Assembly (NCBI RefSeq): GCF_004210375.1
Contig: NC_134831.1
Span: forward strand, 99,017,522 to 99,081,521
From: Tachypleus tridentatus
Lineage: Eukaryota
DNA: 64,000 nucleotides
Direction: 5' to 3'
Both the position numbers and the translations under genes were made by a program. This document shows, in pieces, positions 13,695-56,050 of this stretch; positions within the stretch are counted from its first letter, which is position 1; each line of letters begins with the position of its first letter. The notes below the pieces were generated by a model, which saw nothing but the letters and a program-made list of their open reading frames with translations, was not told the origin of the DNA and did no database searches.

Positions 13695-16600
13695 CAATAT
13701 TTATTTTTATTTTAGACTGTCAGTATTACACAATGTGTAATTAATGTCTGCTTTAACTGATCATGACCAGAAATAAACATTATATACAAACTACTCATTG
13801 TGAAACAAGTAATATTTATTTTAGACTGTCAGTATTACACAATGTGTAATTAATGTCTGCTTTAACTGATCATGACCAGAACTAAACATTATATACAAAC
13901 TACTCATTGTGAAACAAGTAATATTTATTTTAGACTGTCAGTATTACACAATGTGTAATTAATGTCTGCTTTAACTGATCATGACCAGTACTAAACATTA
14001 TATACAAACTACTCATTGTGAAACAAGTAATATTTATTTTAGACTGTCAGTATTACACAATGTATAATTAATGTCTGCTTTAACTGATCATGACCAGAAC
14101 TAAACATTATATACAAACTACTCATTGTGAAACAAGTAATATTTATTTTAGACTGTCAGTATTACACAATGTGTAATTAATGTCTGCTTTAACTGATCAT
14201 GACCAGAACTAAACATTATATACAAACTACTCATTGTGAAACAAGTAATATTTATTTTAGACTGTCAGTATTACACAATGTGTAATTAATGTCTGCTTTA
14301 ACTGATCATGACCAGAACTAAACATTATATACAAACTACTCATTGTGAAACAAGTAATATTTATTTTAGACTGTCAGTATTACACAATGTATAATTAATG
14401 TCTGCTTTAACTGATCATGACCAGAACTAAACATTATATACAAACTACTCATTGTGAAACAAGTAATATTTATTTTAGACTGTCAGTATTACACAATGTG
14501 TAATTAATGTCTGCTTTAACTGATCATGACCAGAACTAAACATTACATACAAACTACTCATTGTGAAACAAGTAATATTTATTTTAGACTGTCAGTATTA
14601 CACAATGTGTAATTAATGTCTGCTTTAACTGATCATGACCAGAACTAAACATTATATACAAACTACTCATTGTGAAACAAGTAATATTTATTTTAGACTG
14701 TCAGTATTACACAATGTGTAATTAATGTCTGCTTTAACTGATCATGACCAGAACTAAACATTATATACAAACTACTCATTGTGAAACAAGTAATATTTAT
14801 TTTAGACTGTCAGTATTACACAATGTGTAATTAATGTCTGCTTTAACTGATCATGACCAGAACTAAACATTATATACAAACTACTCATTGTGAAACAAGT
14901 AATATTTATTTTAGACTGTCAGTATTACACAATGTGTAATTAATGTCTGCTTTAACTGATCATGACCAGAACTAAACATTATATACAAACTACTCATTGT
15001 GAAACAAGTAATATTTATTTTAGACTGTCAGTATTACACAATGTGTAATTAATGTCTGCTTTAACTGATCATGACCAGAACTAAACATTATATACAAACT
15101 ACTCATTGTGAAACAAGTAATATTTATTTTAGACTGTCAGTATTACACAATGTATAATTAATGTCTGCTTTAACTGATCATGACCAGAACTAAACATTAT
15201 ATACAAACTACTCATTGTGAAACAAGTAATATTTATTTTAGACTGTCAGTATTACACAATGTATAATTAATGTCTGCTTTAACTGATCATGACCAGAACT
15301 AAACATTATATACAAACTACTCATTGTGAAACAAGTAATATTTATTTTAGACTGTCAGTATTACACAATGTATAATTAATGTCTGCTTTAACTGATCATG
15401 ACCAGAACTAAACATTATATACAAACTACTCATTGTGAAACAAGTAATATTTATTTTAGACTGTCAGTATTACACAATGTATAATTAATGTCTGCTTTAA
15501 CTGATCATGACCAGAACTAAACATTATATACAAACTACTCATTGTGAAACAAGTAATATTTATTTTAGACTGTCAGTATTACACAATGTATAATTAATGT
15601 CTGCTTTAACTGATCATGACCAGAACTAAACATTATATACAAACTACTCATTGTGAAACAAGTAATATTTATTTTAGACTGTCAGTATTACACAATGTAT
15701 AATTAATGTCTGCTTTAACTGATCATGACCAGAACTAAACATTATATACAAACTACTCATTGTGAAACAAGTAATATTTATTTTAGACTGTCAGTATTAC
15801 ACAATGTATAATTAATGTCTGCTTTAACTGATCATGACCAGAACTAAACATTATATACAAACTACTCATTGTGAAACAAGTAATATTTATTTTAGACTGT
15901 CAGTATTACACAATGTATAATTAATGTCTGCTTTAACTGATCATGACCAGAACTAAACATTATATACAAACTACTCATTGTGAAACAAGTAATATTTATT
16001 TTAGACTGTCAGTATTACACAATGTATAATTAATGTCTGCTTTAACTGATCATGACCAGAACTAAACATTATATACAAACTACTCATTGTGAAACAAGTA
16101 ATATTTATTTTAGACTGTCAGTATTACACAATGTATAATTAATGTCTGCTTTAACTGATCATGACCAGAACTAAACATTATATACAAACTACTCATTGTG
16201 AAACAAGTAATATTTATTTTAGACTGTCAATATTACACAATGTATAATTAATGTCTGCTTTAACTGATCATGACCAGAACTAAACATTATATACAAACTA
16301 CTCATTGTGAAACAAGTAATATTTATTTTAGACTGTCAATATTACACAATGTATAATTAATGTCTGCTTTAACTGATCATGACCAGAACTAAACATTATA
16401 TACAAACTACTCATTGTGAAACAAGTAATATTTATTTTAGACTGTCAATATTACACAATGTATAATTAATGTCTGCTTTAACTGATCATGACCAGAACTA
16501 AACATTATATACAAACTACTCATTGTGAAACAAGTAATATTTATTTTAGACTGTCAGTATTACACAATGTATAATTAATGTCTGCTTTAACTGATCATGA

Positions 16601-18650
16601 CCAGAACTAAACATTATATACAAACTACTCATTGTGAAACAAGTAATATTTATTTTAGACTGTCGGTATTACACAATGTATAATTAATGTCTGCTTTAAC
16701 TGATCATGACCAGAACTAAACATTATATACAAACTACTCATTGTGAAACAAGTAATATTTATTTTAGACTGTCAGTATTACACAATGTATAATTAATGTC
16801 TGCTTTAACTGATCATGACCAGAACTAAACATTATATACAAACTACTCATTGTGAAACAAGTAATATTTATTTTAGACTGTCAATATTACACAATGTATA
16901 ATTAATGTCTGCTTTAACTGATCATGACCAGAACTAAACATTATATACAAACTACTCATTGTGAAACAAGTAATATTTATTTTAGACTGTCAATATTACA
17001 CAATGTATAATTAATGTCTGCTTTAACTGATCATGACCAGAACTAAACATTATATACAAACTACTCATTGTGAAACAAGTAATATTTATTTTAGACTGTC
17101 AATATTACACAATGTATAATTAATGTCTGCTTTAACTGATCATGACCAGAACTAAACATTATATACAAACTACTCATTGTGAAACAAGTAATATTTATTT
17201 TAGACTGTCAGTATTACACAATGTATAATTAATGTCTGCTTTAACTGATCATGACCAGAACTAAACATTATATACAAACTACTCATTGTGAAACAAGTAA
17301 TATTTATTTTAGACTGTCGGTATTACACAATGTATAATTAATGTCTGCTTTAACTGATCATGACCAGAACTAAACATTATATACAAACTACTCATTGTGA
17401 AACAAGTAATATTTATTTTAGACTGTCAGTATTACACAATGTATAATTAATGTCTGCTTTAACTGATCATGACCAGAACTAAACATTATATACAAACTAC
17501 TCATTGTGAAACAAGTAATATTTATTTTAGACTGTCAGTATTACACAATGTATAATTAATGTCTGCTTTAACTGATCATGACCAGAACTAAACATTATAT
17601 ACAAACTACTCATTGTGAAACAAGTAATATTTATTTTAGACTGTCAGTATTACACAATGTATAATTAATGTCTGCTTTAACTGATCATGACCAGAACTAA
17701 ACATTATATACAAACTACTCATTGTGAAACAAGTAATATTTATTTTAGACTGTCAGTATTACACAATGTATAATTAATGTCTGCTTTAACTGATCATGAC
17801 CAGAACTAAACATTATATACAAACTACTCATTGTGAAACAAGTAATATTTATTTTAGACTGTCAGTATTACACAATGTATAATTAATGTCTGCTTTAACT
17901 GATCATGACCAGAACTAAACATTATATACAAACTACTCATTGTGAAACAAGTAATATTTATTTTAGACTGTCAGTATTACACAATGTATAATTAATGTCT
18001 GCTTTAACTGATCATGACCAGAACTAAACATTATATACAAACTACTCATTGTGAAACAAGTAATATTTATTTTAGACTGTCAATATTACACAATGTATAA
18101 TTAATGTCTGCTTTAACTGATCATGACCAGAACTAAACATTATATACAAACTACTCATTGTGAAACAAGTAATATTTATTTTAGACTGTCAATATTACAC
18201 AATGTATAATTAATGTCTGCTTTAATTGATCATGACCAGAACTAAACATTATATACAAACTACTCATTGTGAAACAAGTAATATTTATTTTAGACTGTCA
18301 ATATTACACAATGTATAATTAATGTCTGCTTTAACTGATCATGACCAGAACTAAACATTATATACAAACTACTCATTGTGAAACAAGTAATATTTATTTT
18401 AGACTGTCAATATTACACAATGTATAATTAATGTCTGCTTTAACTGATCATGACCAGAACTAAACATTATATACAAACTACTCATTGTGAAACAAGTAAT
18501 ATTTATTTTAGACTGTCAGTATTACACAATGTATAATTAATGTCTGCTTTAACTGATCATGACCAGAACTAAACATTATATACAAACTACTCATTGTGAA
18601 ACAAGTAATATTTATTTTAGACTGTCAATATTACACAAAGTATAATTATA
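13695..18650. repeat. Satellite array of a 109-bp unit, about 45 tandem copies (about 5 kb), inside the myosin intron.
   Basis: Unit taatatttattttagactgtcagtattacacaatgtgtaattaatgtctgctttaactgatcatgaccagaactaaacattatatacaaactactcattgtgaaacaag. The period was measured as 109 bp at three successive copies. Confidence 0.97.
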
Positions 18651-19835
18651 AGTAATATTTATGTCAGATTTACCAATATTTAACATTTAATTAACACAAT
18701 TTTTCTTTTGCTTTATTTAATCATAAACAAAATATACATACACACTTTTAAGAATGAACACATTTTACATTTTAATTACATTGGACTAACACGCATGATA
18801 AATTCCAAAAATTATTTAGTTATAAAAATTAAATTATCTCATAATTTTATGATAATGATAATGGAAAACATTTTTTTTAAAAAACTTAGGAGATACCATT
18901 TGTATTATATTATGTTGGCTTGAAGTTTAATTTTTTTTAAATTTTCGTTATCTACAAAGTGTAAATTACAGTTTTCTTCAAATATAAAAACAGGAATGTG
19001 ATTTATCTTTGTATACCAATCTCTATTCATATATCTCAAGATGGCTGGTATGGATATTAAAAAAAGGAACATTTTTACTTCAAGTGTCATCATGAATCTC
19101 TATTCTTATCTTAAAATTTGATTCATGTACACAAACTAAAAATATTATGTACTACACGAAATAATTTAATGAGTTATTAACATCATAAAAAATTCTGTTT
19201 CATTTATTTATTGTTAAACAATATTACCAACCCAAATAGAATGACCAATACAGAAAATACTTTTTATTCCTAACATAGCATAAAATAATATAAACACACT
19301 TCAGTAGACAAAAGACATAGTTATTGGTTCATAAACTGCAAAAGTGACACAGCAGTGTTTACATTCAATGAAAGATTCTTAGCAGCTTGAATTTTCTAAC
19401 AGATGATGTAAAATATTCTCATGCTAAGCAGTTTGAATAGCGACATGTTTACGTTAATAAAAGATATTTAACATCTTATTTTGTGATACAAATGTCATAC
19501 AGTTTATGTAGTTATTATATTATCAAATTATTTATATAATTATACATAGTTGGGGACCATATTAAGTAATTATAATGAGTTTTAGTGGTTTTTGTAACAG
19601 ATATAAGTAACAAAAAACAACCTTCTATAGTCCAAAAGTTATTAAAATAATGAACAAGTTTCCTTTGTGTATTCCTGTGTTTACAAATTTTATAAGTATA
19701 TAACTGCTTACACATTTTCAAGTATAAAAAAAGGATTAAAACAAAATAAGGCTTAGTATTATTCTTTGTATTATTAGTATTATTCTTTGGAGTTTACATT
19801 CTGATTAAGTATATTTTATTGCAAGCTACAGTTTT

Positions 19836-20115
19836 TTTGTTTGTTTATTTTTTGAATTTTGAACAAAGCTACTCGAGGGCTATCTGTGCTTGCCGTCCCT
19901 AATTTAGCAGTGTAAGACTAGAGGGAAGGTAGCTAGTCATCACCACCCACTGCCAACTCTTGGGCTACTCTTTTACCAATGAATAGTGGGATTGACCGTC
20001 TCCATATAATGCCCCCATGGCTGAAAGGGCGAGCATGTTTGGAGCAACGGGGATGCGAACTCATGACCCTCAGATTACAAGTCGCACACCTTAACACGCT
20101 TGGCCATGCCGGGCC
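19836..20115 (-). mobile_element. tRNA-derived SINE (family 1), an older CpG-decayed copy.
   Basis: Reverse complement of the tRNA-like head (ggcccggcatggccaagcgtgttaaggtgtgcgacttgtaatctgagggtcatgagttcgcatcc) and body. The A/T-rich tail, seen as its complement gtttgtttattttttgaattttgaacaaagc, is at the 5' end on the plus strand. Confidence 0.85.
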
Positions 20116-20649
20116 ATTGCAAGCTACAGATTCTACATTAAGAAAGAAAAATTATTAAAGCTTATTGCTTGCCATTTTCAAAAAGACATTGCCTAAAGTT
20201 AAAACTACTTATTAATGAAAATACATTTTGACAGATCCAAGCAGTATAAGTGACAAACCTGTGTTTTATTCTTTGTTGTCACAGTTTTCTAACAAGATGT
20301 TTTGCAACAACAACGTTTATTCTTTTTTTTGTGCTGGTACTGAATTTAATCAAGTCTATCAGTACAGATACATTATGTCTTGATGAATTGAAAAGCATCT
20401 ACTAATTTCCTTTACAAGGCTCAGTTAACAATCTCTTTTATTTCATTCTTATCGCACAGGAAACCTCAATTCTCTTGTTTTTATGTGTACTTACAATAGA
20501 AGTAATTCAGTTTGTTTATGTACAACACAAGTTAGGTCTCAATTCAAGCAATCATTGTTCACATGCTCACAGTTAGTATGGAGATGGAGTTGACTTCCAA
20601 GAATTTGTAATGCTCAAAATCTGAACAAGAATTCGTTCTTCTTAATCAC

Positions 20650-21480
20650 TATCATAAAATCATAATCCCAGAAGTTGGAAAGTTCTGTATGATAAGTTTG
20701 AAACTGAACACACTTAAGATAAAGACCCAACTCAATAACATCAACCCAGTAATGTTCTGTATGATAAGTTTGAAACTGAACACACTTAAGATAAAGACCC
20801 AACTCAATAACATCAACCCAGTAAAGTTCTGTATGATAAGTTTGAAACTGAACACACTTAAGATAAAGACCCAACTCAATAACATCAACCCAGTAATGTT
20901 CTGTATGATAAGTTTGAAACTGAACACACTTAAGATAAAGACCCAACTCAATAACATCAACCCAGTAAAGTTCTGTATGATAAGTTTGAAACTGAACACA
21001 CTTAAGATAAAGACCCAACTCAATAACATCAACCCAGTAATGTTCTGTATGATCAGTTTGAAACTGAACACACTTAAGATAAAGACCCAACTCAATGACA
21101 TCAACCCAGTAATGTTCTGTATGATAAGTTTGAAACTGAACACACTTAAGATAAAGACCCAACTCAATAACATCAACCCAGTAAAGTTCTGTATGATAAG
21201 TTTGAAACTGAACACACTTAAGATAAAGACCCAACTCAATAACATCAACCCAGTAATGTTCTGTATGATAAGTTTGAAACTGAACACACTTAAGATAAAG
21301 ACCCAACTCAATAACATCAACCCAGTAATGTTCTGTATGATAAGTTTGAAACTGAACACACTTAAGATAAAGACCCAACTCAATAACATCAACCCAGTAA
21401 TGTTCTGTATGATAAGTTTGAAACTGAACACACTTAAGATAAAGACCCAACTCAATAACATCAACCCAGTAATGTTTTAA
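20650..21480. repeat. Tandem repeat of a 72-bp unit, about 11.5 copies.
   Basis: Period 72 bp (24-aa periodic pseudo-ORFs). Three frames lack stop codons, which produced the overlapping ORFs in the track at 20614-21486. Confidence 0.95.
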
Positions 21481-22717: not shown

Positions 22718-23035
22718 GTGTCCACAAGTTTAAAAACACAGCTTTTAGTGGTATTAGTGCCCCCAGTGGCACAGTGCTAGAAACTTGATGTTGATACCTA
22801 TGGGGGCAGAGCACAGAGAGCCTATTGTGTAGTTTTGTGCTTCATTACAAACAAAGTGGCATGAGCCCCCATACTTACTATTGAATCATTAAATACTATT
22901 GTAATTTTATTCTTTTTAGAGAGACATTTACAGGCCAGCTTACCTGGCTGTTTTCTGTCGTTGGGTTTGATACATCGGACATACCATGGTTCTTTTGACA
23001 TTAATATTGTCATCAACTGAGACAAGCTTCTCTTA
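22718..23035. repeat. Copy A of a roughly 320-bp segmental duplication. It contains a SINE2 insertion plus the functional myosin exon at 22944-23049.
   Basis: About 90 percent identical to 24937-25250 over a SINE2 element and the adjacent exon sequence. Confidence 0.9.
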
Positions 23036-23049
23036 AACTGGGTGGCTGT
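22944..23049 (-). CDS. Class I myosin exon. It encodes [35 protein letters not shown](A).
   Basis: Conserved myosin motif VRCIKPN. Aligns with MYO1[37 protein letters not shown]. Donor CAG|gtaagc. The acceptor is most likely tcgaag| at 23049; an alternative lies 4 nt downstream. Confidence 0.85.
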
Positions 23050-24320
23050 CTTCGAGAAGAAAAGAAGAAGTATTATATCATAAAGAGCAGCCTACTTATG
23101 AGAAGACATTATTGATGGTTACTAGTGACAGGTTTTTAATGTTTTGGACTGATACCTGTTATTGTTAGAAGCTTTCCAAAATGAAACAGATGTTTTTACT
23201 TTATGATTTAAAACTGCAACCACAGTTAAACGTATAAATCGTTTCACTCTGCTCTATATGATGGAAATATTGCCACTGTACAAGTTATATCAAGTAAAAA
23301 GTATAAGGAAAAGCTGACTAAATGTGTGAATGCTTCCTGTATGGATATTACTTTCTAAAAACTTTAAACAGTTTAATCAGGTTTTAACTAAACTAATTAT
23401 TTCTTTACAGAAATTATCTAAGGTTATAAGTTGTTTTTCTAATTATACTTATGCTACTTTCTGAATCTTATATCAGTAATAAGTTTTATTTAAGCAAACA
23501 ATTAAAATATCAGAATTTTAGGTTATTTTTTTCTTACTTGACCAACTGAGACAACAAGAACACTTTCTCTTACTACTGTTGAAAAAAAGAAGCATATTAA
23601 AGATAGAGACATGCCATTCACTTATTTTTGGACAGTTTATAATTTAAAGTGTTTTGCTGACCAATCAATACTAACCTTATATATTGTGTCTAATTAATTC
23701 ATATTTAAAGTAATAAACATAAGACAGTTGCAACCAACAGCTCATGTAACTGACAAAAATCAAGAGATACAGAGATACTGTTAAATATAATTTGTGCCTA
23801 AACACAATGCAGCTAAAGTTCATACAAGTTTAACAATAAATACAATAAGCTGAGACATTTAACCACTGGTCAACAGTTTGGTGAATATCTTACAATAATA
23901 TCAACTATTAGTCAACAGTAGACATCTTACAGTAATGTTAACCGGCAGGGGCGTTGAGAGGCAGGTCAAGCCCCGGGGACAATTATGTCACTGGGCTTCA
24001 TTTTGAAGTCTTAATAAATTCATGGTACATTCATGGGCATATGAAGAATTTTACTAGTGGGTGGAAGCCAAATGTGTTGATAATATACATTTTTTTGATA
24101 AAAAGGTATTTATTGAGGCAAAGAAATTTCCAGCAGTACTGGGATTTTTCCTTAAGTATATTATAAAAATGAGAATACACTATTCTTTATCCCATATTTT
24201 CCCAGGCCCCAGGACTGTATTCCCCCCCCCCACCATCTTGTCAGGCCTGTCAATCAGTAGTCAATAGATTGGCAGATATCTTATAATACTGTTAAACATA
24301 GATCAATTTAGCTAACTTAC

Positions 24321-24401
24321 TGTGTCTGGTCTTTTCTTGTTTGAAAGCTCAGATTCTGGAAAAGAAGTTCTTGTGATGAGATTTGATGTCTTTGTCATAG
24401 T
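24321..24401 (-). CDS. Class I myosin exon. It encodes TMTKTSNLITRTSFPESELSNKKRPDT.
   Basis: Aligns with MYO1C [27 protein letters not shown]. Acceptor gttttcag|, donor ACA|gtaagt. 27 codons. Confidence 0.85.
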
Positions 24402-24936
24402 CTGAAAACATATTTAAATACTCAGAAAAAAATATACATGAACTTGGGTTTAACATCTGACATTAGATGTAGAGCAGTGGTTTTGTAATATAGCAGAAAT
24501 TCGTTCCTAGTATTTAAATGTTTAATACTACACTAATAAAATATTTGATATGCTTTACATTTCCAAAAATTAAACCCAATTTTATCTTCTACTTGACAAA
24601 TACATTCTAATGAATACCTTCAAGTTTTCATAACTACTTGAAACTTATAATCATAAAAACCAAGTGTCAGTTGGTCTGTCAGTCAAACAAGTTAGATTTC
24701 ACCAAATTTCGTGAGCTACATGAGTCAAATTACATTATTTATCCAATAATACTCCCCCTTGTCACTACCCTTTACCATTTCAGTTCACTTGTTAAAATAA
24801 GCATAAGTAGGTCCTACATTTCACCACTTTATCCGCCTACCAGGGAAGGATCATTTATATGAAGGATTTATTTAGCACAGACTGAAATTAACTTGTTATG
24901 AAGAGGAATTGGAGCAATAACTGAGGATTTACAAGT

Positions 24937-25250
24937 TTAAAAACACAGCTTTTAGTGCTATTAGTGCCCCCAGTGGCACAGTGCTATGTCTGCAGTGCTA
25001 GAAACTCGATGTTGATACCTGTGGGGGGCAGAGCACAGATAGCCTATTGTGTAGTTTTGTGCTTCATTACAAACAATGTGGCATGAGCCCCCATACTAAC
25101 CACTGAGTCACTAGCAGAAAGGAAAATAAGTGTAATTTTATTCTTTTTAGAGAGACATTTACAGGCCAGCTTACCTGGCTGTTTTCTGTCGTTGGGTTTG
25201 ATACATCAGACATTAATGTTGTCACCAACTGACACAATTGATGTGGTTAG
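24937..25250 (-). pseudogene. Copy B of the duplication. It is a pseudo-exon copy of the VRCIKPN exon, with a 19-bp deletion and a CGA to TGA stop.
   Basis: The minus-strand reading gives [11 protein letters not shown] with an intact gtaagc donor. The block accatggttcttttgacat is missing relative to copy A. Confidence 0.8.
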
Positions 25251-25556: not shown

Positions 25557-25603
25557 CTTTTTCAAATCTCGATACAGAAGATCATTATTCTTCTCCAAAA
25601 ACC
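25557..25603 (-). CDS. Class I myosin exon. It encodes (G)FLEKNNDLLYRDLKK.
   Basis: Aligns with MYO1C GFLDKNNDLLFRNLKE. Acceptor ttgtttccag|, donor AAG|gtaaat. Phase agrees with the flanking exons. Confidence 0.88.
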
Positions 25604-26637: not shown

Positions 26638-27372
26638 CTGAAACACACAAACACATGCACCAATAAGAGGTAATTACTGAAAAACAGAACATTTGTTTGG
26701 TATAAATAAACCAATGTTATAACCAATAGCATTGTCAGACATGGTCAATTTATATAATAGTCAGATATTTTTAAATTAAACAAGCTTGATAACATAAAAT
26801 AACATTAAAATATAATAAAGAACATTATGGTCCTTCTAGGCTGTCCTATTCACTGTATTAAACTAAACCAAAAATAAAGTTCCATGTCAACCATTATCAT
26901 TCAATTACTCATCAAGTGTACCATTCTGTAATGAGAATTATGCTTTCTTAGCTGAAAATGACTCCCACCCTCTCAAGGTTTATACTTATGTCCCTCACTA
27001 TTTTCATTTTGCCATTAAATAAATAATAGAAAAAAACACATGATGATTAACACTATCATTTCTCTTAGTTGGGTTTAGTGATATTTTTTTCAGACTACTT
27101 GAATAACGTATGAACTTTGATGCTATATATTACAAACCAGAGGTAAAAGATGAGGGTAATTAATGAAAGTATGTGTTGTGATAATTACTAAAAAAGTATT
27201 TAATTAGATAAATTAAATTTATCTAATGACCATAAGATAAGACCCAGATGAAATTAAATTATTTCATACATGATAGGAAACATAACATGAACAAAACAAA
27301 ACTTAATTAGTCCACATTTATAATAAATTTAAAGTTTTCTATATGATGTGAGTTACATATGATAGTTAATTA

Positions 27373-27848
27373 CACTATGTAACACAAATTTTGTTCCTGG
27401 ATGGTGTATGTTATTTCTTAATTGCTTATGTTGTAAAAGTACAGAAAATGGTCATTATTCCCTACAAGCTTTGCTTTTGTGACTTGGATAATGAAATTTA
27501 GAAATTAACCTATTTTCTATGTAAAAACAGGCAAATTTGCATATTTTCATTTACATAAGGTACAAATAAAACATATGAATCAAGATTTACATGTATTTAT
27601 ACTAAAGTTATACAAAAATGTTTAGAAGTGAGTAGTTTTTCGAGATTTGCAACTGTAATGTAAATCTCTTTCACGTGTCAGCTCCAAATATAGTTTCCCA
27701 TCATGTTTTCGTTATACGCTCCCAGGTCACAAAAGCTGAGTTTGAGAGAAAAATGGGTCTTTTCCATTTACTTTAGGCATAAGCAATTGGGAAATAACAC
27801 TTTCTGTCCAGGAACAAGAAAAAGTAAAAATTTTGTAACATAGTGTTA
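27373..27848. mobile_element. Second copy (about 90 percent identical) of the Harbinger-like MITE, flanked by a TTA target-site duplication.
   Basis: Same TIRs as the copy at 1297-1783. Left flank tta, right flank tta. Internal sequence is collinear. Confidence 0.75.
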
Positions 27849-28228
27849 TTAACTGTTTATATACATATATAACAAGTAACATACAGCATATCTCTGGTAC
27901 ACACTCAATGTCACATAATCAATAATTTACCAGCATATGGGCTAACAGCAACAGTCAGCTACTCTATTTATTAAATGTGAAAAATGTAGTGATTATATAT
28001 ATGTCTTCAGTGCTATTTTCCTGGATATCCATGTTGGATATTGATAAATGAGTGGTAACAGTTCATACTGCAGTTTATTTAATAGAATACTTGTCTTTTT
28101 TCAGAAAATGATTTTTCTAGCAGATAAATCATACTTAAACAGCAATTAAATTTATTAGTTTAATATCTGTTTACATTCAATCATCTTATTTCCAGTTATC
28201 CTTCAAAACAATGTACAACATACGTGTA

Positions 28229-30495: not shown

Positions 30496-30899
30496 ATCAA
30501 ACTAGATGGACTTTGATTCTTAAAAGGGAATCACATTAAAAAAGGTCTAATGTATAAATTAAAAAAATTAAATAGCATTAAAAAGATTAATGGTCTTTAA
30601 AAATTAAAAACATTTCTAAGGTGGACAGTATCACCATCGCCAATGACATAGTCTAATGTTATGGATAAACTTTGAGACAGAAGATGTTTAAAATGATGCC
30701 TTTGTTGAGAGTCATAACAACGGCAAGACAGAAAAATGTGGTTTATTGTGACCTAAGTGTTATACAGACAACACATTGGTGCATCAGTCCCAGATAAAAG
30801 AAAACGATGAGTTAAAAAACTGTGACCAATGCATAGTCTAGTTAGAACAACCTCCTCTTTCCAATCCTTACAAGAGCAAGACAGCCAAAGTCCAATATA

Positions 30900-32900
30900 G
30901 GGTTTTATTTAGGAAAGCTTGTTTTCATGTTGCTCACTCCAAGTCAACTGCCAACTAGCACGGAGCCAAGCTTTGAATACAGGATCATAGCCCATGTATG
31001 GAACAGGCACAGTGGTGATAGAGCTAGAGCAAATAGATTTAGCTGCAGTGTTGGTAAGCTCGTTCCCATGAATACTGAGTATATCATCAGGTCTGACCAA
31101 TGTACTGGTAGACTGATGAATGACCAGTTTAAGTTCAACCAGTGTAAAGGAATGATTATAGTCGCAGAGACAATCTGCTCGAGTCTTAATGGCTAAGAAG
31201 GTGTTGGAAGAAGCAGAAGTGCTAGATACCTGAAAAAAGCTTTCACCAAGAGTATCGGTGATGCTCTGGTATCAGCTACTTCCTGTCCATCAGAGAGCAA
31301 GACAGAATTATATTGCCCACTGATCTTTCAAATCTTGTCCCACGTGACTTTGGAACTGGTAGTAGAAGATATGCTGGTTGTGAACTTAATACAAGATTCC
31401 TTCTGGCTTTGATGTCTTACCCACCAAGCATGTGCACGGGCCTGCTGGAAAGAGATGCAGTGCAAGAGTGTGGGATACCTATGAAAAGTATCCCAGGCCT
31501 GGTTCTGAGCCTTTTTGTGCCATGTGGCAAGCAGGATTTCACCACGAACGAAGATATTTTAGAAAACGTGCCGAGGTTTTAGGAATACATTGAGTAGCTG
31601 TTTGTATAATACAGTCAGTTACTGCTGCCACACAGTCATCTATTGATGGCTTACAGATGATGGCAATATCAAGTTCTGTGAGAGCAGTGAAAGAGGACCA
31701 GTTTGCTTGATCAAGCTTCCACTGAGGCACGAGGGTTTGGTAGCATCGACCACGGCCAGTCTCTTTCAAAATAATTGGAAAATGATCACTGCCTCATGAA
31801 TTATTGTCAACCCTCCAAGAAAAATGAGAGAATAGTAAAGGGGAGCAAATTGAGAGATCAACAGCAGTAAATATCAGCACTTATCCAGAGGGGATGATGT
31901 CTATTAAAAATGTCAGGATTAAAAATGGAGATGGCAACTGTTCAATGAGAGCATTAAGATCTGATTGATCATGGGTTTCTCCAGGGGACAGGTAGAGAGA
32001 ACAAACAGTGATGGTATGACCCAAGGAAACATGGATGGCTATAGCATCCTAGGGTGTATAGAGTGGCAAAGACAGGGTGGGCACATGCTGATCAACCAAC
32101 AGCACCACTCATCCATCACATAGCCTGTCATTTCTATACAAAGAGAACTGCTGAAAGGTGATTGTATCAGCAGGTTTCAGAAATGTTTCCTGTAAGGAAA
32201 GACATACAGGATGGTAGGAAGCATCGTAAACCTCGACAGTTCCATTGTATCAAGGTGGACATCTTTATTCATATGAAGGCAACTTGGGTGGAGAACCCTT
32301 CTGTTTACGACCACATCTTTTTTCTTTACTGTCTTTATTCGAGGGAGATCTATCAACCTCCATGGATCCTGCCCTGGGTTGATTAGACAAGTCTTTGCTG
32401 TTGGAAGAGGATTCCAGTAATTGAGGATGTGAATGAATGATCGTTTTGCATCTAGTGTGGAAGAAGATGTATCTGAGGAAATGCCTGTACCTGGAACCAA
32501 AGGATGTGGATCTTGGGGTTTGCTGGAATGTATGTAAGGGACAGAGATGGGTGTTGAAGTTGATTCATCAACTTTAACCATGGAGGTCAAAAGACTTTAC
32601 ATTTGGTTTGAGAATGATTCTTTTGAAGGCACAGAGAGATCCATCTGCACTCCCACTGTAGTAATGTAATGAAGTGCAGCAGCATACATCCGAGATGAAG
32701 TGGTAGACAGCAACTTTCGAGCCTCAGAGTAAGTAATGTTTTGAATCATTTTCAAATGCTTAACCTCTTTTTCTTCCAACCATTTAGGGGAAGAATGAAA
32801 GTAGTATGTGTGAGAGCCATTGCAATTGATGCAACGAGGGTCTGTTTCACACTCATAGGCATCATGGTCCTTGCCACTGCAATGAGCACACGTCAAGGAA
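30900..32900 (-). mobile_element. Degraded non-LTR retrotransposon fragment: a gag-like CCHC ORF1 plus the start of ORF2.
   Basis: The minus ORF at 32597-32896 carries zinc-knuckle-like CAHCSGKDHDAYEC...CINCNGSH. The minus ORF at 31539-31769 carries a PQWKLDQANWSSF motif typical of LINE ORF2 downstream of the endonuclease. The plus-strand ORFs here are antisense. Confidence 0.5.
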
Positions 32901-33884
32901 CTTTGAGTGACCGAACTGCTGACACTGAAAATATTGGAGAGGGTTTGGAATGTATGGCTATACTCTGCAATTAAGATAACCTACCTTGATGGTGGCAGGT
33001 GGATATGGTGATGTAAATAAATAATAATAAATCAACATCTTCTGACAGTTCTTAGTTCAATAATTTTGTAATGAAGTTTTAAATAATTTAAACACATGAA
33101 AAAAAACACCAAATTACTATTTCAATGATATTTACATAAAGGTTCTTGTCATAAAACCTTTTAGTTTTATAACGATTTACAATACCAACTTTTGTGTACT
33201 GATAAGAAAGCACCTACGAAGAAGCTTGTGAATAAAATACAGAGAAAAGGACCACACTAAATGCTCAGTGTTATCCAGTATACATAAGAGAAAAAATAAA
33301 TACAAGTTTTAAAAAAAGAATGTAAAGCAAAATCAGAAAGTGTTACTTTAAATCTATAAAATAGATTTTTTTAAACTTGTAAGCATCACAGAGGTGGGCG
33401 ACAATAACTGAAAGGAAAAATGTCAATGATGACCTAAAGATGTTGTAACTCAAAAAAACGTTTTAAAGAAAGCCTTTTTAGCAGTTCTGAAAGAATTTGA
33501 TAGACACAAGAGCATGACTGTCAGAAAACAAAACAGTATGCTTGTTTATTTCATGTGTTTGCAAAAATATACACAAGAACTATCTGCCATGTCCATCTCT
33601 AATTTTGAACTGATAGACCAAAGTATAAACCTTGCTAACTGACAGTTACTGACGTAAAGAAAAAAATATGGAACTCACCTTCCATTAATGGTTAATTTTT
33701 ATTTTATTCAAAGAAGAGTTTTGTTACCAAGCAGATTCACAGTTTAGTGATATGTAGTTTGTTTGTGTTTTGATAGATGTACACCACAAGTTGAACTTTT
33801 CCTAGTGATTTTACTGTGAGCATAACAACATTCATTTGCTAAGACAGTTACGTTAATAAACCATGCCATATTCTACGCTCCTCT

Positions 33885-34135
33885 AAACTTTTGGCTCATC
33901 ATTGTCAGGTGGTTAGGGTTCTTGACTTGCAATCTGAAGGTTGCAGGTTTTAATCCCTGTTACACTAAACATGCTCACCTTTTCAGCCATGAGGACATTA
34001 TAATGTGATTGTCAATCTCACTATTCATTGGTAAAAGAGTAGCTCAAGAGTTGGCAGTGGGTGATGTTTACTCTCTGCCATTTCTCTTGTATTTTACTTC
34101 TAAATTAGGGCTAGTATAGATAGTCCTCATGTTGC
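33885..34135 (+). mobile_element. Diverged SINE1 copy.
   Basis: Collinear with family 1 (gttgcaggttttaatccc...cattggtaaaagagtagctcaagagttggcagtgggtgatg) but heavily mutated. Confidence 0.6.
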
Positions 34136-34371
34136 TTTACATATATATCTTATATATATGTAATATATCTTAAGTCAATGTTTACATCCTTTATCATAAA
34201 CCCAATTCTGATGTGTAATGACTTAAATATAATTCATAAATATTCCACTTCATTGCTTTAATTAGGTCATAGTATGAACAATGTCTGGATCACTGTTATG
34301 TCTGTTATATATCAGCCAGCCTGATGGTCCTTAGAATTGGAGGAAAATCCTCATCACTACTGGATATATCA

Positions 34372-34500
34372 GAAGCCCCCCAGTGGCTCAGCAGTATGTC
34401 TGTGGACTTATAACACTAAAAATTGGATTTCGCCACCCATGGTGGGCAGAGCACAGATAGCCCATTGTGTAGCTTTGTGCTTAATTCAAAACAACAACAC
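34372..34500 (+). mobile_element. Second tRNA-derived SINE family (SINE2, about 125 bp).
   Basis: The sequence cccccagtggctcagcagtatgtctgtggacttataacactaaaaattggatttcgccacccatggtgggcagagcacagatagcccattgtgtagctttgtgcttaattcaaaacaacaa recurs at 22735-22860, 24955-25085 and 57215-57335. A fragment lies at 54062-54125. Confidence 0.8.
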
Positions 34501-37869: not shown

Positions 37870-39180
37870 ACAAAACAACAAGTCATTAAAAATAAATACA
37901 TGTAGTTTAAAGTTATTATATTACCTGTGAGACTGAACAATGTACACTGAATATTGATAATAAATACATGTAGTTTAAAGTTATTATATTACCTGTGAGA
38001 CTGAACAATGTACACTGAATATTGATAATAAATACATGTAGTTTAAAGTTATTATATTACCTGTGAGACTGAACAATGTACACTGAATATTGATAATAAA
38101 TACATGTAGTTTAAAGTTATTATATTACCTGTGAGACTGAACAATGTACACTGAATATTGATAATAAATACATGTAGTTTAAAGTTATTATATTACCTGT
38201 GAGACTGAACAATGTACACTGAATATTGATAATAAATACATGTAGTTTAAAGTTATTATATTACCCTGTGAGACTGAACAATGTACACTGAATATTGATA
38301 ATAAATACATGTAGTTTAAAGTTATTATATTACCTGTGAGACTGAACAATGTACACTGAATATTGATAATAAATACATGTAGTTTAAAGTTATTATATTA
38401 CCTGTGAGACTGAACAATGTACACTGAATATTGATAATAAATACATGTAGTTTAAAGTTATTATATTACCTGTGAGACTGAACAATGTACACTGAATATT
38501 GATAATAAATACATGTAGTTTAAAGTTATTATATTACCTGTGAGACTGAACAATGTACACTGAATATTGATAATAAATACATGTAGTTTAAAGTTATTAT
38601 ATTACCTGTGAGACTGAACAATGTACACTGAATATTGATAATAAATACATGTAGTTTAAAGTTATTATATTACCTGTGAGACTGAACAATGTACACTGAA
38701 TATTGATAATAAATACATGTAGTTTAAAGTTATTATATTACCTGTGAGACTGAACAATGTACACTGAATATTGATAATAAATACATGTAGTTTAAAGTTA
38801 TTATATTACCTGTGAGACTGAACAATGTACACTGAATATTGATAATAAATACATGTAGTTTAAAGTTATTATATTACCTGTGAGACTGAACAATGTACAC
38901 TGAATATTGATAATAAATACATGTAGTTTAAAGTTATTATATTACCTGTGAGACTGAACAATGTACACTGAATATTGATAATAAATACATGTAGTTTAAA
39001 GTTATTATATTACCTGTGAGACTGAACAATGTACACTGAATATTGATAATAAATACATGTAGTTTAAAGTTATTATATTACCTGTGAGACTGAACAATGT
39101 ACACTGAATATTGATAATAAATACATGTAGTTTAAAGTTATTATATTACCTGTGAGACTGAACAATGTACACTGAATATT
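37870..39180. repeat. Tandem repeat of a 68-bp unit, about 19 copies.
   Basis: Unit ttacctgtgagactgaacaatgtacactgaatattgataataaatacatgtagtttaaagttattata, nearly identical between copies. Confidence 0.95.
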
Positions 39181-39419
39181 GCAAAATTAAAGGTAGTTAT
39201 TCAAACTGCACAATAAAACCTTTTAACTTTAGACTTTTGTACAACCTGCATACATTCCAATGGACACTTCATCTGTATTTGTCAACTGGCAAGTAAAAAT
39301 TAATTTTACATCAAGAATATAAGCATTATTAGTTGGTAAGTAATGTTATACATATAATGTACCATTAATCAAATGTGTACAGAAATAAGTATGAAAAGTA
39401 TTTCACTAGATATACTCAC

Positions 39420-39491: not shown

Positions 39492-39639
39492 CTAAGAAAA
39501 CAAGAAGAAACTGTTCTATATATTTACTACCAGTTATTTGCCCATCCCTAGAACGTGCACAGCTTAATGTAGAAACTTATTAAATGAAATTCCTTGCAGT
39601 TGCTACAATACATTTATCAGTTACAAAAATGCAACAGTA

Positions 39640-39941
39640 CTATAGCACTGTAACTAACCTTGCATCCAGAATAAACTGACTTCTCCAATGTAATAAGAGC
39701 CTACCCATTATCTTCTGTGGACCCATCATTAACAGAATAACACTGTAACTAGCCTTGCATTCAAAATAAACTAACTTCTCCAGTGTAATAACAGCCTGCC
39801 AATTATCTTCTGTGAATCCAACATTGATACTATAACATTGTAACTAACCTTGCATACAGATTAAACTGACTTCTCCTGTGTAGTAACAACCTAACAATTA
39901 TCTTTTGGACCATACAGTAACACTATAACATTGTAACTAAC
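39640..39941 (-). repeat. Tandem amplification (about 3 extra copies of roughly 95 bp) of the 3' half of the myosin exon at 39942-40052 together with its splice donor.
   Basis: Each unit ends with caaggttagtta (the exon end plus the gttagt donor) on the minus strand. The units diverge from the true exon: their reading frame is interrupted and they do not read as LHLGN coding sequence. Confidence 0.85.
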
Positions 39942-40052
39942 CTTGCATACACAACAAACTGACTTCTCCTGTGCAATAACAGCATGACCATCATCCTCTG
40001 TGAAGCCAACATTACCTAGATGAAGAACTGATGCCACAACTGCAAACAAAGC
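39942..40052 (-). CDS. Class I myosin exon. It encodes [37 protein letters not shown].
   Basis: Contains the conserved myosin LHLGN motif. Aligns with MYO1C [21 protein letters not shown]... Acceptor tttcttctag|, donor AAG|gttagt. Confidence 0.88.
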
Positions 40053-41725: not shown

Positions 41726-42094
41726 CTAGAAAGAGGCAGTAGTTAAACCCGTTACCTAAAGAGTAATTATTTAAAAATTATAAAGGCAAATGTACAATAC
41801 AAAACAGTTTCTTATAAAATAAGGAAAATTATAATGAAGAAGTACTGCTAGGCACTGGAACAGTGGGGCCCATGCTCTGATTTTATTTGAAAGTGCCCCA
41901 AATCCCCAGTGAAAAATCAGAACAGAAAAACCATGATTGATTTCATATTGAAATGCCACAAATTACTCTGCCTATGAGTCCAAGCCTTGAATAAAGCACC
42001 TTCCAATGTCTCTGCAAAAGCCATTTTATATGATGTTTACTAAATTTCACATAAAGCACCTCAGGCCTACTAGCTGTCCATAATTTTGTAGTAA

Positions 42095-42270
42095 TAGTCA
42101 TCAAACACTGCCAACTCCTGGGCTACTCTTTATCGATGAAGAAGAGAAAGATTGACTGTCATGTTATAATGCCCTAATAAGTGAAAATGTGAACATGTTT
42201 AGGATGGGGTTCAAACCCATGATCCACAGATTGTGAATCAAATGCCCTAATCACTAGCTATCGTGATATC
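42095..42270 (-). mobile_element. Diverged partial SINE1 copy.
   Basis: The segments ccaactcctgggctactcttta...gattgactgtcatgttataatgccc...ggggttcaaaccc are collinear with the reverse complement of family 1. Confidence 0.55.
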
Positions 42271-48269: not shown

Positions 48270-49899
48270 CTACAAAAAGAAAACGTCAAATTTACTATTA
48301 CTGACACATGAAAAACATGCACAACACACTTGGGAAATTCAGTAAAATGTAAATAATATGTGCAATATGTCCTTCTCACCATGACATCACATGAAGTATC
48401 ATTGTACACAACACTGTAAACTGACCTCAGAAGTTTTATACACCTACCAAGTTACTGTATCCTTAAGTTTCTAAATAATGCATGGACATATTTCAAATAA
48501 CCTCACAGAAAAAAAAAGCCACAAATCATGGGACACTGAAGGACAGCATAATCCAAATCTCTAGATGTAACAGAACCCAAAAGGATGCCACATTCACTGT
48601 TTCTCAAAGTGTTCAAAGTCCTGAGTGTTCAACACATTCTTCCCAGGCTTCATATCATTAGTTTGTTGCATGCTAGAATTGTTAAAAATATAGAACCTAC
48701 AACAGATATATAAAAAAAACCACTGCTCTGCAGTTCATGCTACAAAATGTAGAAAAACTATGGTTCATGTTAATTATATTAAAACAATTATATGTATGCT
48801 GTACTCTTGACCATATATAATTACCACAAGAAAAAAGGTCACAACGCACAAAAAGATGGTCTATTGTATGTCAATACATGCAGCAAATGTGCACTGGTAC
48901 GAAAAATGCTTAACACTTAAATGAATTAAACTGTTCACCTTTATAAGGCTAAGAAGAGAAAAAAAACGTATTTTTTTTGGTACCATAGGTATAGCAAACC
49001 AAAAGGTATCAAATCAATGTAAATATTTTTACTATGTGTAAGAAGTTATCATGACATGCATACTCTTGGACACATTTACTTTGTGTTATTTCACTTTAGT
49101 ACAAACTAAAAGTTTTCTTTAAAGGAACAGTTTTTATGATTTATTTTCAGTAATACAGCAAGTTATGTGTCCAAAATAATAATAATGTTGTAAATTCTGA
49201 TAATAATGAATTTTTATGAGTTGTTCTTGTTCATTTGCTCAAATGTAACTGACAATGTCAGATGAGACCTTCTTTAATTAATTTACTGAAGACTATGGTC
49301 ACCAGGGTATGATTCAATTATCTCTTTTTTTTGCTATTGTAAAATGACCACTCTACACTTAACTTATAATTTACTGTAAATTAGACCTTACATGGCATGT
49401 TCTGCACCAGTATTGGTGTTTCAGCTGAGGAACGAATTCTTTATAACAGTGTTTAGTGTCAGTATGTTAATACTCGATTTTAACAGATATTCAATGTGTT
49501 GTGTACTACATTTTAAAATACAGTTAATTAACACTCTTATTTAGGTCTATGTGATGATACAATGATCAGTTTTCAGTTTGTGCATTTGTCTTAGTGCTAG
49601 AATAGAAGTAGCCAGTAATTTTATCCAAAATGCTTTATCATGTTTTGCTAAACTTTGGGTCATGGGAAAAACAAAATGGTTTCACCTTCAGATATTCACA
49701 CAATTCATGCTAATAATAGAAGCAAAAGACTATTAAAAAATCTGAATTTTTATTCAATTAGAGATGTTTTAATAAAACAACTATCTTAATAGTTTTGAAG
49801 ACTTACAAGAGCCATTTAAATACGTTTTATTAAATTCAACATACAGAAGTTGTTTGTTTGTTTTGAATTTTGTACAAAGTTACATGAGGGCTATCTGCA

Positions 49900-51180
49900 G
49901 CCTAATACAATATTTTTCTTCATGTTATATACAGAAAGTATACAGCATACTTTATTACAATCTAATACAGAAAGTATACAGCATGCTTTATTACAATCTA
50001 ATACAGAAAGTATACAGAATGTATACAGCATTCTTTATTACAATCTAATACAGAAAGTATACAGCATGCCTTATTACAATCTAATACAGAATATATATAC
50101 AGCATGCTTTATTACAATCTGATACAGAAAGTATACAGCATGCTTTATTACAATCTAATACAGAAAGTATACAGCATGCTTTATTACAATCTGATACAGA
50201 AAGTATAGAGCATACTTTATTACAATCTAATACAGAAAGTATACAGCATGCTTTATTACAATCTAATACAGAAAGTATAGAGCATGCCTTATTACAATCT
50301 AATACAGAATATATATACAGCATGCTTTATTACAATATAATACAGAAAGTATAGAGCATGCTTTATTACAATCTAATACAGAATATATATATAGCATGCT
50401 TTATTACAATCTAATACAGAAAGTATACAGTATGCTTTATTACAATCTAATACAGAAAGTACAGAGCATGCTTTATTACAATCTAATACAGAAAGTATAC
50501 AGCATGCTTTATTACAATCTAATACAGAAAGTATAGAGCATGCTTTATTACAATCTAATACAGAAAGTATAGAGCATGCCTTATTACAATCTAATACAGA
50601 ATATATATACAGCATGCTTTATTACAATATAATACAGAAAGTATAGAGCATGCTTTATTACAATCTAATACAGAATATATATATAGCATGCTTTATTACA
50701 ATCTAATACAGAAAGTATACAGTATGCTTTATTACAATCTAATACAGAAAGTACAGAGCATGCTTTATTACAATCTAATACAGAAAGTATACAGCATGCT
50801 TTATTACAATCTAATACAGAAAGTATAGAGCATGCTTTATTACAATCTAATACAGAAAGTATAGAGCATGATTTATTACAATCTAATACAGAAAGTATAG
50901 AGCATGCCTTATTACAATCTAATACAGAATATATATACAGCATGCTTTATTACAATATAATACAGAAAGTATAGAGCATGCTTTATTACAATCTAATACA
51001 GAATATATATATAGCATGCTTTATTACAATCTAATACAGAAAGTATACAGTATGCTTTATTACAATCTGATACAGAAAGTATAGAGCATGCCTTATTACA
51101 ATCTAATACAGAATATATATACAGCATGCTTTATTACAATCTAATGCAGAAAGTATACAGTATGCTTTATTATAATCTAA
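49900..51180. repeat. Satellite of a 36-39-bp unit, about 34 copies, with a roughly 292-bp higher-order periodicity.
   Basis: Unit ctttattacaatctaatacagaaagtatacagcatg. The ORFs at 50081-50323, 50373-50615 and 50665-50943 are near-identical and offset by 292 bp, which indicates a higher-order repeat. Confidence 0.9.
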
Positions 51181-55777: not shown

Positions 55778-56050
55778 TTGTTTGTTTTGAATTTCGCACA
55801 AAGCTACTCGAGGGCAATCTGTGCTAGCTGTCCCTAATTTAGCAGTGTACGACTAGAGGGAAGGCAGCTAGTCATCACCGCCCACCGCCAACTCTTGGGC
55901 TACTCTTTTACCAACGAATAGTGGGATTGACCATCACATTATAACGCACCCACGGCTGAAAGGGCGAGCATGTTTGGCGCGACGGGGATGCGAACCCGCA
56001 ACCCTCAGATTACGAGTCGCGCGCCTTAACACGCTTGGCCATGCCAGGCC
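55778..56050 (-). mobile_element. tRNA-derived SINE (family 1), CpG-rich copy.
   Basis: About 90 percent identical to 19836-20115. The tRNA-like box B region gggatgcgaacccgc is retained. Confidence 0.9.

Follow-up and report, generated by a model that had tools for sequence, protein, structure and literature searches.

A decayed pseudo-exon in a myosin-Ic-like gene of Tachypleus tridentatus, derived from a duplicated SINE and part of the WYVRCIKPN exon

The host gene and the two repeats

The window (the whole stretch of 64,000 nucleotides that was analysed) carries on its minus strand exons of the Tachypleus tridentatus myosin-Ic-like gene. The match was obtained by a protein search with an 825-aa model, and the exons in the window are 100% identical to T. 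tridentatus XP_076369373.1 (P0241), with splice phases that agree. Class I myosins of the Myo1c/Myo1h type are recognized by a motor domain (P-loop, switch I and II, RCIKPN helix), IQ motifs and a TH1 tail, and both the motifs in the window and the Pfam assignments of P0241 (PF00063, PF06017) place the gene in this class. Database look-ups for the Tachypleus paralog (P0243), the gene (P0241, P0363) and two open reading frames of the window found nothing on record. Within the gene lie two direct repeats, here called copy A and copy B. Their positions and those of the exons around them are as follows (a slash marks a splice junction).

22724–23025, minus strand: copy A, the source block, which holds a SINE with 35 bp of flank and reaches through 88 bp of intron into the real exon, taking in its 3' 82 nt (blastn and global alignment).
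22944–23049, minus strand: the real 106-nt exon, 35 residues, phase 0 to phase 1, with acceptor ...CTCGAAG/ and donor CAG/GTAAGC (GT at 22943–22942); 100% match to XP_076369373.1.
24321–24401, minus strand: genuine 81-nt loop-2 exon (TMTKTSNLITRTSFPESELSNKKRPDT) between copies A and B (tblastn, splice phases, exact match to P0241).
24931–25237, minus strand: copy B, the inserted duplicate, within the 1,155-nt intron between exons 25603–25557 and 24401–24321.
25557–25603, minus strand: genuine 47-nt exon ((G)FLEKNNDLLYRDLKK), the last one, in gene order, before the B-containing intron (exon mapping).

An earlier sequence-only reading had placed copy B in the adjacent intron, upstream of its source. 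'Upstream' holds in gene sense only, since the minus strand carries the gene; 'adjacent' is wrong, because the 81-nt exon at 24401–24321 separates A from B, and the copy lies two introns upstream of the source exon.

Extent and identity of the duplication

The two copies are highly similar by blastn (overall E ~1e-80), with a main segment at E = 2e-81 and a further segment, past a 19-bp indel, at E = 7e-06. Of 281 aligned columns, 266 are identical (94.7%); with gap columns included, the global alignment gives 86%. The copies differ by 15 substitutions and 4 indels. The blocks that had been described as about 90 percent identical (22718–23035 and 24937–25250) are thereby refined by 6–13 bp at their ends, and the figure itself is fair because it lies between these two values. 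The copies have the same orientation, are spaced 2,207 bp apart and are separated by ~1.9–2.2 kb.

The similarity is not restricted to the SINE. The SINE body occupies only ~22758–22855, and pairwise alignment extends the homology on both sides of it, by 35 bp at the SINE 5' side and by 170 bp at the 3' side, with 86–100% identity. The 170 bp consist of 88 bp of intron and 82 bp of exon, as expected from the original proposal that the duplication took the SINE together with the 3' part of the WYVRCIKPN exon. Significant similarity thus runs past the repeat into unique sequence, as in a dispersed intragenic segmental duplication. A run of 83 bp around the donor (22900–22982) contains a single mismatch between A and B; gene conversion, or selection on B, was considered for this run and dropped, with ~4.4 mismatches expected against 1 observed (P ~0.07, rough Poisson).

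The SINE and the order of events

The boundaries of the SINE were set by a family alignment that included two further copies in the window and six from Limulus. The elements used are listed below.

22748–22757, plus strand: 5' target-site duplication of the SINE in copy A (GTGGTATTAG), defined by the Limulus empty site.
22758–22855, plus strand: body of the SINE in copy A, which lies antisense to the gene at 88 bp beyond the exon donor (family alignment).
22856–22865, plus strand: 3' target-site duplication in copy A (GTGGCATGAG), with 8 of its 10 positions the same as in the 5' copy.
24965–25077, plus strand: SINE body in copy B, with target-site duplications at 24955–24964 (GTGCTATTAG) and 25078–25087 (GTGGCATGAG).
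34376–34500, plus strand: a fuller copy of the same family, used to set the SINE boundaries.

Several features identify the element as a SINE. At least four copies of the family occur in the window and at least six in the 72-kb Limulus locus (L001), in both orientations and with a defined 3' tail of the (CAAA)n type. Furthermore, the insertion in Tachypleus is bounded by a 10-bp target-site duplication, and the corresponding site in Limulus is empty (L001 ~54465–54469; ...TTCATGCCAC^TAAAAAC in gene sense), with blastn segments that overlap there by 5 bp. The last 50 bp at the SINE 3' end are common to a second SINE family in the window, of ~270 bp.

The finer label 'SINE2', which had been attached to the element, is a different matter. 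By eye, the head of the SINE (GCCCCCCAGTGGCTCAGC...GGTTTCGATACC...GGTGGGCA) looks tRNA-like, with a box A, a box B and acceptor-like ends; a match to box A (TGGCTTAGTGG) or to box B (GGTTTTGATAC) is seen in individual copies. Neither the window nor L001 nor the SINE consensus yields a tRNA call with ARAGORN, and the Rfam tRNA model gave no match at E<=1 to the copies or the consensus. Because neither program recognizes any copy or the consensus, the tRNA derivation stays a visual judgement, plausible in our view; the designation as a SINE holds on its copies, target-site duplication and empty site. The family resembles tRNA-derived SINEs (SINE2 in Repbase usage) in being a dispersed repeat of ~125 bp with a head that looks tRNA-like, a short-repeat tail and a target-site duplication, and it differs from them in escaping recognition by ARAGORN and the Rfam model. 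A literature search on SINEs yielded only their small share of the repeat content and no description of the present family.

The SINEs of A and B have the same target-site duplication and the same family-atypical internal deletion, and hence go back to a single insertion that was later copied. The claim that the duplication post-dates the SINE is borne out by this shared element and its target-site duplication, together with the two empty sites in Limulus. Compared with copy B and the family, the SINE in A has also lost 14 bp at one place and 1 bp at another. The difference of 14 bp in length within the SINE thus reflects a deletion in A and not an insertion in B, and B retains the ancestral 14 bp (...TGTCTG...).

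Comparison with Limulus

The comparison set one Tachypleus assembly against the Limulus locus L001. The ortholog of the exon in A lies at L001 54253–54358, with no second copy within the Limulus gene, and Limulus homology runs on beyond both ends of block A. Across the site of B the two species are collinear (25235 in the window pairs with L001 52024, and 24935 with L001 52043), and Limulus has ~18 bp there instead of the B block. The Limulus ortholog therefore lacks both the SINE and copy B, so that the SINE insertion and the duplication are events of the Tachypleus lineage. The source is present in the outgroup and the derived copy is missing from the orthologous site, as in a segmental duplication, and the direction of copying was from A to B.

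The divergence of A from B (K2P = 0.056) can be set beside that of Tachypleus and Limulus introns (0.17–0.22). The common ancestor of the two genera has been dated to ~135 Mya (PMC7815833), and the duplication would be tens of millions of years old.

With one Tachypleus assembly inspected, it could be asked whether B is mis-assembled or a haplotypic duplicate. The 15 substitutions and 4 indels are complementary and lineage-polarised, however, and the unique sequence around B is collinear with Limulus. B also retains ancestral states that A has lost, as an artefactual copy of A could not, and we regard this explanation as highly implausible.

Junctions and the mechanism of copying

Short identities are found at both junctions of B, TTG (3 bp) at one end and CTTGT (5 bp) at the other, common to the donor, to B and to the target, for which Limulus serves as proxy. 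In copy A these sequences form the outer ends of the block (CTTGT at 22724–22728, TTG at 23023–23025). Another 18 nt that are present in the Limulus target are missing at the B site, an apparent target deletion by this cross-species proxy. Both the exact microhomologies and the 18-bp deletion are to be read as proxies, because Limulus, ~72–77% identical in this region, is the sole source for the target as it was before the insertion.

The 3-bp and 5-bp microhomologies and the 18-bp target deletion together indicate a one-step templated insertion. FoSTeS/MMBIR and ectopic SDSA are repair models for microhomology-mediated templated insertion and duplication. The present case has microhomology at both junctions and a template in cis ~1.9 kb away, with the target again given by the cross-species proxy. 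It resembles events of this type in its short, nearby template in cis, its 3- and 5-bp microhomology, its small target deletion and its freedom from transposon hallmarks; it differs in that a single template switch would be enough and no complex rearrangement is seen, and in that the mechanism is deduced across a species comparison of ~135 My, not from an ancestral allele. A microhomology-primed templated insertion is the most likely repair mechanism, judging from these junctions.

The following course of events is proposed. After the split from Limulus, a SINE of ~125 bp inserted in the Tachypleus lineage, antisense to the gene and 88 bp past the donor of the 106-nt exon. A single event at the DNA level would then have copied ~300 bp, without a change of orientation, into the intron that is next but one upstream. 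Along with the SINE and its two target-site duplications, the piece took in 35 bp of flank and, on the other side, 88 bp of intron with the last 82 nt of the exon. The insertion, microhomology-primed and templated during break repair or replication (of the MMBIR/FoSTeS or ectopic SDSA type), would have joined at TTG and CTTGT and displaced ~18 bp of the target. The copy, without acceptor and the first 24 nt of the exon, has subsequently decayed neutrally with its strong donor intact. We put the probability of this account, from SINE insertion through a ~300-bp templated copy to neutral decay as a non-functional pseudo-exon, at roughly 85%. Within it, the duplication and how far it reaches, the direction from A to B, the succession of the two events, their restriction to the Tachypleus lineage and the decay of B are demonstrated, and the repair mechanism, the age and the absence of a function are inferred.

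Other origins of copy B can be weighed against the same junctions. The spacing of 2,207 bp and the shared orientation would also fit a tandem unit, in which 22724–24930 (the exon A region and the loop-2 exon) was duplicated and the second unit then reduced by deletion to its first ~300 bp, and CTTGT would serve as the tandem junction. Because the Limulus flanks on the two sides of B are contiguous, the deletion must then have come to within ~18 bp of that unit's far end. No further duplicated sequence was found beyond 25237, and two events are required where one is enough. Such a two-step history is improbable, though the best of the alternative origins.

The presence of a SINE within the block, with extra sequence at its 3' side, might suggest an RNA intermediate, either by SINE 3' transduction or through a retro-copied fragment of pre-mRNA. 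Against this, B includes 35 bp upstream of the SINE head along with the 5' target-site duplication, and the Pol III terminators TTTT and TTTTT (22905–22918) lie between SINE and exon. The end of B has neither an A-rich or (CAAA)n tail nor a target-site duplication of its own, and the target shows a small deletion with microhomology. This class of event was rejected for the missing tail and target-site duplication, the 5' flank and the internal TTTT runs; its chance of being correct is very slight.

Duplications by SINE/Alu-mediated NAHR are alike in having a SINE inside the duplicated block. In the present case both breakpoints lie outside the SINE and the Limulus target site is without one, and NAHR was rejected for these reasons. 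The SINE is accordingly a passenger, not the cause of the templated insertion favoured above.

Decay of the copied exon

The copied exon segment survives as two features.

25169–25174, minus strand: retained pseudo-exon donor GTAAGC (alignment; PWM score 11.6).
25175–25237, minus strand: what remains of the pseudo-exon, 63 nt, in which a TGA, a deletion of 19 bp and 4 substitutions are changes derived in B.

The view of copy B as a decayed pseudo-exon some 2 kb from its source agrees with the alignment in each of its details. An in-frame TGA at 25208–25206 (minus strand) replaces the CGA at 22977–22975 in A. A frameshifting deletion of 19 bp lies between the GACAT direct repeats (22978–22982 and 22997–23001 in A). 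The donor GTAAGC is kept at 25174–25169; the 9-mer CAG/GTAAGC matches the functional site without a difference, as do the 44 nt of intron that follow it. The original acceptor and the first 24 nt of the exon are absent from the copied piece. With a stop codon, a frameshift and neither the acceptor nor the start of the exon copied, an alternative or mutually exclusive coding exon was ruled out.

The changes were polarised with Limulus and the SINE family as outgroups. In the exon, B has the derived state at each of the four substitutions (4/4) and for the 19-bp deletion. The functional exon of A shows zero derived changes, and A has intron and SINE changes of its own. The divergence is thus complementary: A has preserved the coding part, which decays in B, and B has preserved some of the intron that has changed in A. 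Copy B has decayed neutrally and is probably a pseudo-exon without function.

Splicing potential of copy B

The possibility that copy B acts as a cassette or poison exon, tuning myosin-Ic output through an NMD-triggering 174-nt form or an in-frame 54-nt form, draws on its splice sites. The donor does not differ from the working one, and its score of 11.6 exceeds the 99th percentile of the decoy GTs found across the window (PWM built from only 20 sites). With acceptors scored by a PWM of the same size (n=20), the best candidate is the AG at 25348 (8.1, 98.5th percentile), which would give a 174-nt exon with in-frame stops. A second AG at 25228 would give an open, frame-preserving exon of 54 nt (18 residues), but it scores −1.7, at the median of decoys and below every real site.

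Annotation and conservation speak against such a role. The peptide derived from B is absent from all nine annotated NCBI protein isoforms (X1–X9), every one of which joins ...RDLKK/TMTKTS... and ...KKRPDT/TATQFK.... Nor is B conserved as a poison or cassette exon: it is specific to the Tachypleus lineage, absent from Limulus and accruing substitutions and a deletion at about the neutral rate. A functional exon in B is therefore, in our judgement, very unlikely. Poison exons, the NMD-coupled cassettes of SR-protein genes for example, are similar in being intronic, with a strong donor and with inclusion that usually leads to a premature stop. Known poison exons are conserved and their inclusion can be demonstrated; copy B is lineage-specific and decaying, has no convincing acceptor and appears in 0/9 isoforms. 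Low-level or tissue-specific use of B through the AG at 25348 or 25228 is just as unlikely, and so is the alternative in which the 300-bp direct repeats on either side of the loop-2 exon would make the locus prone to recurrent deletions of 2.2 kb.

Significance

Copy B belongs with the pseudo-exons that arise by intragenic exon duplication, in which exon sequence comes to lie, as a copy, in an intron of its own gene, unchanged in orientation and with a splice site preserved. The class of tandem exon duplications was reportedly surveyed by Letunic, Copley and Bork in 2002. The present case departs from that class in that only the 3' 77% of the exon was copied, without the acceptor. The copy is also non-adjacent, with another exon in between, carries a SINE and intron along with it, and is already disabled by a stop codon and a frameshift. 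The event is real, well resolved and datable, but it is an ordinary kind of pseudo-exon; no new mechanism or system is revealed.

In practice the consequences are modest. The fragment of the WYVRCIKPN exon may be misplaced by gene predictors and read mappers, and the strong donor retained in B is a potential cryptic splice site. The direct repeats also flank an essential exon, that of loop-2. Were B used after all, through the AG at 25348 or 25228, it would be a young, Tachypleus-specific poison or cassette exon in the motor domain of myosin-Ic. As it stands, the locus offers a clean, fully polarised case of the birth of a pseudo-exon, in which the outgroup preserves both the empty SINE site and the unoccupied insertion site.

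The host gene and its local exons

Motif scans, together with tblastn searches using class I myosins, identified the host as a Myo1c/Myo1h-type gene on the minus strand that covers nearly the whole window. In a full-length search, every exon in the window was 100% identical to XP_076369373.1, the Tachypleus tridentatus 'unconventional myosin-Ic-like isoform X3'. The local exon chain has GT-AG at all junctions and consistent phases.

Local exons from exact spliced mapping, in gene order
28905-28768, minus, first in chain
26637-26589, minus, second
25603-25557, minus, third
24401-24321, minus, fourth, the 81-nt loop-2 exon (TMTKTSNLITRTSFPESELSNKKRPDT)
23049-22944, minus, fifth, 106 nt, its end present in copy A
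22373-22142, minus, sixth

Within the window, the nine NCBI protein isoforms (X1-X9) differ only by the skipping of two cassette exons (41725-41627 and 9801-9718): X6 is without GNSTRV...EEVN and X4 without ASNILQ...QKA. The remaining differences are alternative N-terminal/first-exon and start-site choices.

A duplicated exon end and its SINE

Repeat and blastn searches delimit two direct repeats whose starts lie ~2,207 bp apart. They match in a main segment (E = 2e-81) and in a second segment past a 19-bp indel (E = 7e-06). Global alignment gives 266 identities in 281 aligned columns (94.7%), and identity falls to ~86% when four indel events (14, 1, ~10, and 19 bp) are counted. The sequence-only reading had placed these blocks within 6-13 bp of their limits, and its estimate of about 90 percent identity was fair. 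Alignment and spliced mapping also bear out its statement that each block holds a SINE and the 3' part of an exon.

Parts of the duplication
22724-23025, copy A: last 82 nt of exon 23049-22944, CAG|GTAAGC donor, 88 nt of intron, SINE, and 35 bp past the SINE
24931-25237, copy B: the same parts
~22758-22855, plus, small SINE body in copy A, by family comparison
~24965-25077, plus, small SINE body in copy B, by family comparison

Copy B falls within the 1,155-nt intron bounded by exons 25603-25557 and 24401-24321. Contrary to the first proposal, this intron is not adjacent to the source exon, because the loop-2 exon sits between the copies.

The small SINE is antisense to the gene in both copies. 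Its limits were drawn from a fuller copy (34376-34500), a partial copy (~54020-54108), six copies in the orthologous locus of Limulus polyphemus (L001), and a tail shared with a second family. With these limits, homology between A and B reaches past the SINE by 35 bp on the head side and 170 bp on the tail side, and is therefore not confined to the element. The head has a tRNA-like appearance (GCCCCCCAGTGGCTCAGC...GGTTTCGATACC...GGTGGGCA), but neither ARAGORN nor Rfam gives a call on it, and the label 'SINE2' is no more than plausible.

The second SINE family is abundant and ~270 bp long, and its head (GGCCTGGCATGGCCAAGCG...GGGTTCGCATCCC) clearly resembles a tRNA. Over its final ~50 bp (GCACAGAT.GCCC...GTAGCTTTGTGC..AATTCAAAACAAACAAA) it matches the small SINE's tail, which suggests a LINE partner common to the two families.

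Copies of the second SINE family
19836-20123
33892-34138
42088-42254
55777-56050
56432-56715
59872-60134
60647-60920
62937-63197
2574-2766

A string of minus-strand ORFs at 30600-32980, in the 4.9-kb intron whose flanking exons lie near 34769 and 29770, looks by eye like a decayed LINE (GSDHFPIILK-type endonuclease motif, reverse-transcriptase-like segments, CCHC-like gag piece) and could be a candidate partner of the SINEs.

Order of events and mechanism

Across this part of the window the Limulus locus is collinear. At the A site its SINE site is empty (gene sense ...TTCATGCCAC^TAAAAACTG...), and the Tachypleus SINE there is bounded by a 10-bp target-site duplication, one copy at 22748-22757 (GTGGTATTAG) and the other at 22856-22865 (GTGGCATGAG). 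The Limulus intron is uninterrupted at the B site (window 25235 = L001 52024, window 24935 = L001 52043), with ~18 nt versus 300 bp in Tachypleus, and the exon fragment occurs only once in the Limulus gene. Since A and B share the same target-site duplication and the same family-atypical internal SINE deletion, and the Limulus sites are empty, the order of events is the split from Limulus, SINE insertion beside the exon, and lastly the copying of block A to the B site. The claim that the duplication post-dates the SINE is thereby upheld.

A three-way alignment compared A as donor, B plus flanking sequence as product, and the Limulus site as target. All three have TTG at the gene-upstream junction of B and CTTGT at the gene-downstream junction; the 18 nt between these junctions in Limulus (CATTATTGGAACAGTTCT) are missing in Tachypleus. 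In this alignment B has neither a tail nor its own target-site duplication. Both breakpoints fall outside the SINE, which is a passenger of the duplication and not its cause. Retro-copying and SINE 3' transduction are both contradicted by the 35-bp flank 5' of the SINE in B and by Pol III terminators (TTTT and TTTTT, 22905-22918) within the block. With Limulus standing in for the ancestral target, B is most simply explained by one templated insertion primed by microhomology (MMBIR/FoSTeS or ectopic SDSA type), for which the template would have lain 1.9 kb off in cis. A two-step history is possible but less parsimonious: after a 2.2-kb tandem duplication, a deletion would need to end almost exactly at the unit boundary.

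Decay and age

Outgroup comparison with Limulus and the SINE family gave the direction of change for the differences between the copies. Every change in the exon fragment arose in B: four substitutions, one of them CGA>TGA at a CpG (25208-25206), and a 19-bp deletion between GACAT repeats. The in-frame TGA and this deletion had both been noted from the sequence alone. The functional exon in A has zero derived changes. Within the SINE, copy A lost 14 bp between CAGTGCTA repeats, so the '14-bp insert' of B is ancestral; a 1-bp deletion is also derived in A. An intron patch of ~45 bp adjoining the SINE tail (22856-22899) has seven substitutions, mostly G:C>A:T, and a ~10-bp deletion, all derived in A, with the Limulus-like ancestral sequence kept in B; it may represent a complex or clustered mutation.

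The K2P distance between A and B is 0.056, against 0.17-0.22 for aligned Tachypleus-Limulus intron sequence. With a common ancestor at ~135 Mya (PMC7815833), simple proportion gives a crude age of tens of millions of years, ~25-40 My.

Other repeats in the window

A second exon-end duplication occurs in the same gene (39639-40014; Limulus L001 41751-41938). Its 95-bp unit comprises the final 72 nt of exon 40052-39942, the exon's CAAG|GTTAGT donor, and 23 intronic nt. Tachypleus has four tandem repeats (~80% identity), which supply three additional pseudo-donors along with decayed pieces of pseudo-exon (e.g. NVGFTEDNWQAVITLEKLVY); Limulus has two copies (94%).

A satellite array of ~5 kb (13703-18687; 109-bp period, units 95-99% identical) lies in the 8-kb intron that separates exons 21800-21724 and 13684-13616. 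Other intronic tandem arrays give rise to long artefactual minus-strand ORFs.

Other intronic tandem arrays, with approximate periods
37885-39198, ~68 bp
20679-21476, 72 bp
49821-51181, 36-ish/292 bp
1-566, 63 bp

Two overlapping minus-strand ORFs in the gene's upstream intron region (58494-59251), of 163 aa (59251-58763) and 121 aa (58856-58494), resemble by eye a frame-disrupted mariner/Tc1-type transposase (...HERFKDGRQSIEDNERPGRPSTSTDD...). A 500-bp element occurs in two different introns (1276-1778 and 27349-27849; 91% identity) and may be a palindromic or MITE-like repeat, given its reverse-orientation self-match (61%).

Status of copy B

The donor of B, which had been described as retained, is identical to the working donor and outscores more than 99% of decoy GTs on a matrix built from only 20 sites, all of this gene. 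Its candidate acceptors are less convincing: AG 25348 (98.5th percentile) would yield a 174-nt exon with in-frame stops, and AG 25228, with a decoy-median score, would yield a 54-nt open, frame-preserving insert. A B-derived peptide is absent from all nine isoforms, which splice as ...RDLKK|TMTKTS... and ...KKRPDT|TATQFK.... An alternative coding exon is rejected as the identity of B. By the features that define poison exons, B is not one: it lacks conservation, its acceptor is doubtful, and its peptide appears in no isoform; rare NMD-targeted inclusion may occur. Out of the isoforms, absent in Limulus, and with neutral-looking decay, B is best regarded as an inert pseudo-exon, in keeping with the decayed state first proposed for it.

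The event, an intragenic partial-exon duplication giving an intronic pseudo-exon, belongs to a known kind, of which it is a new and well-documented example; it probably came about by microhomology-mediated templated insertion. The value of the case lies in its clean polarity and dating, together with the corrected details of the earlier account.
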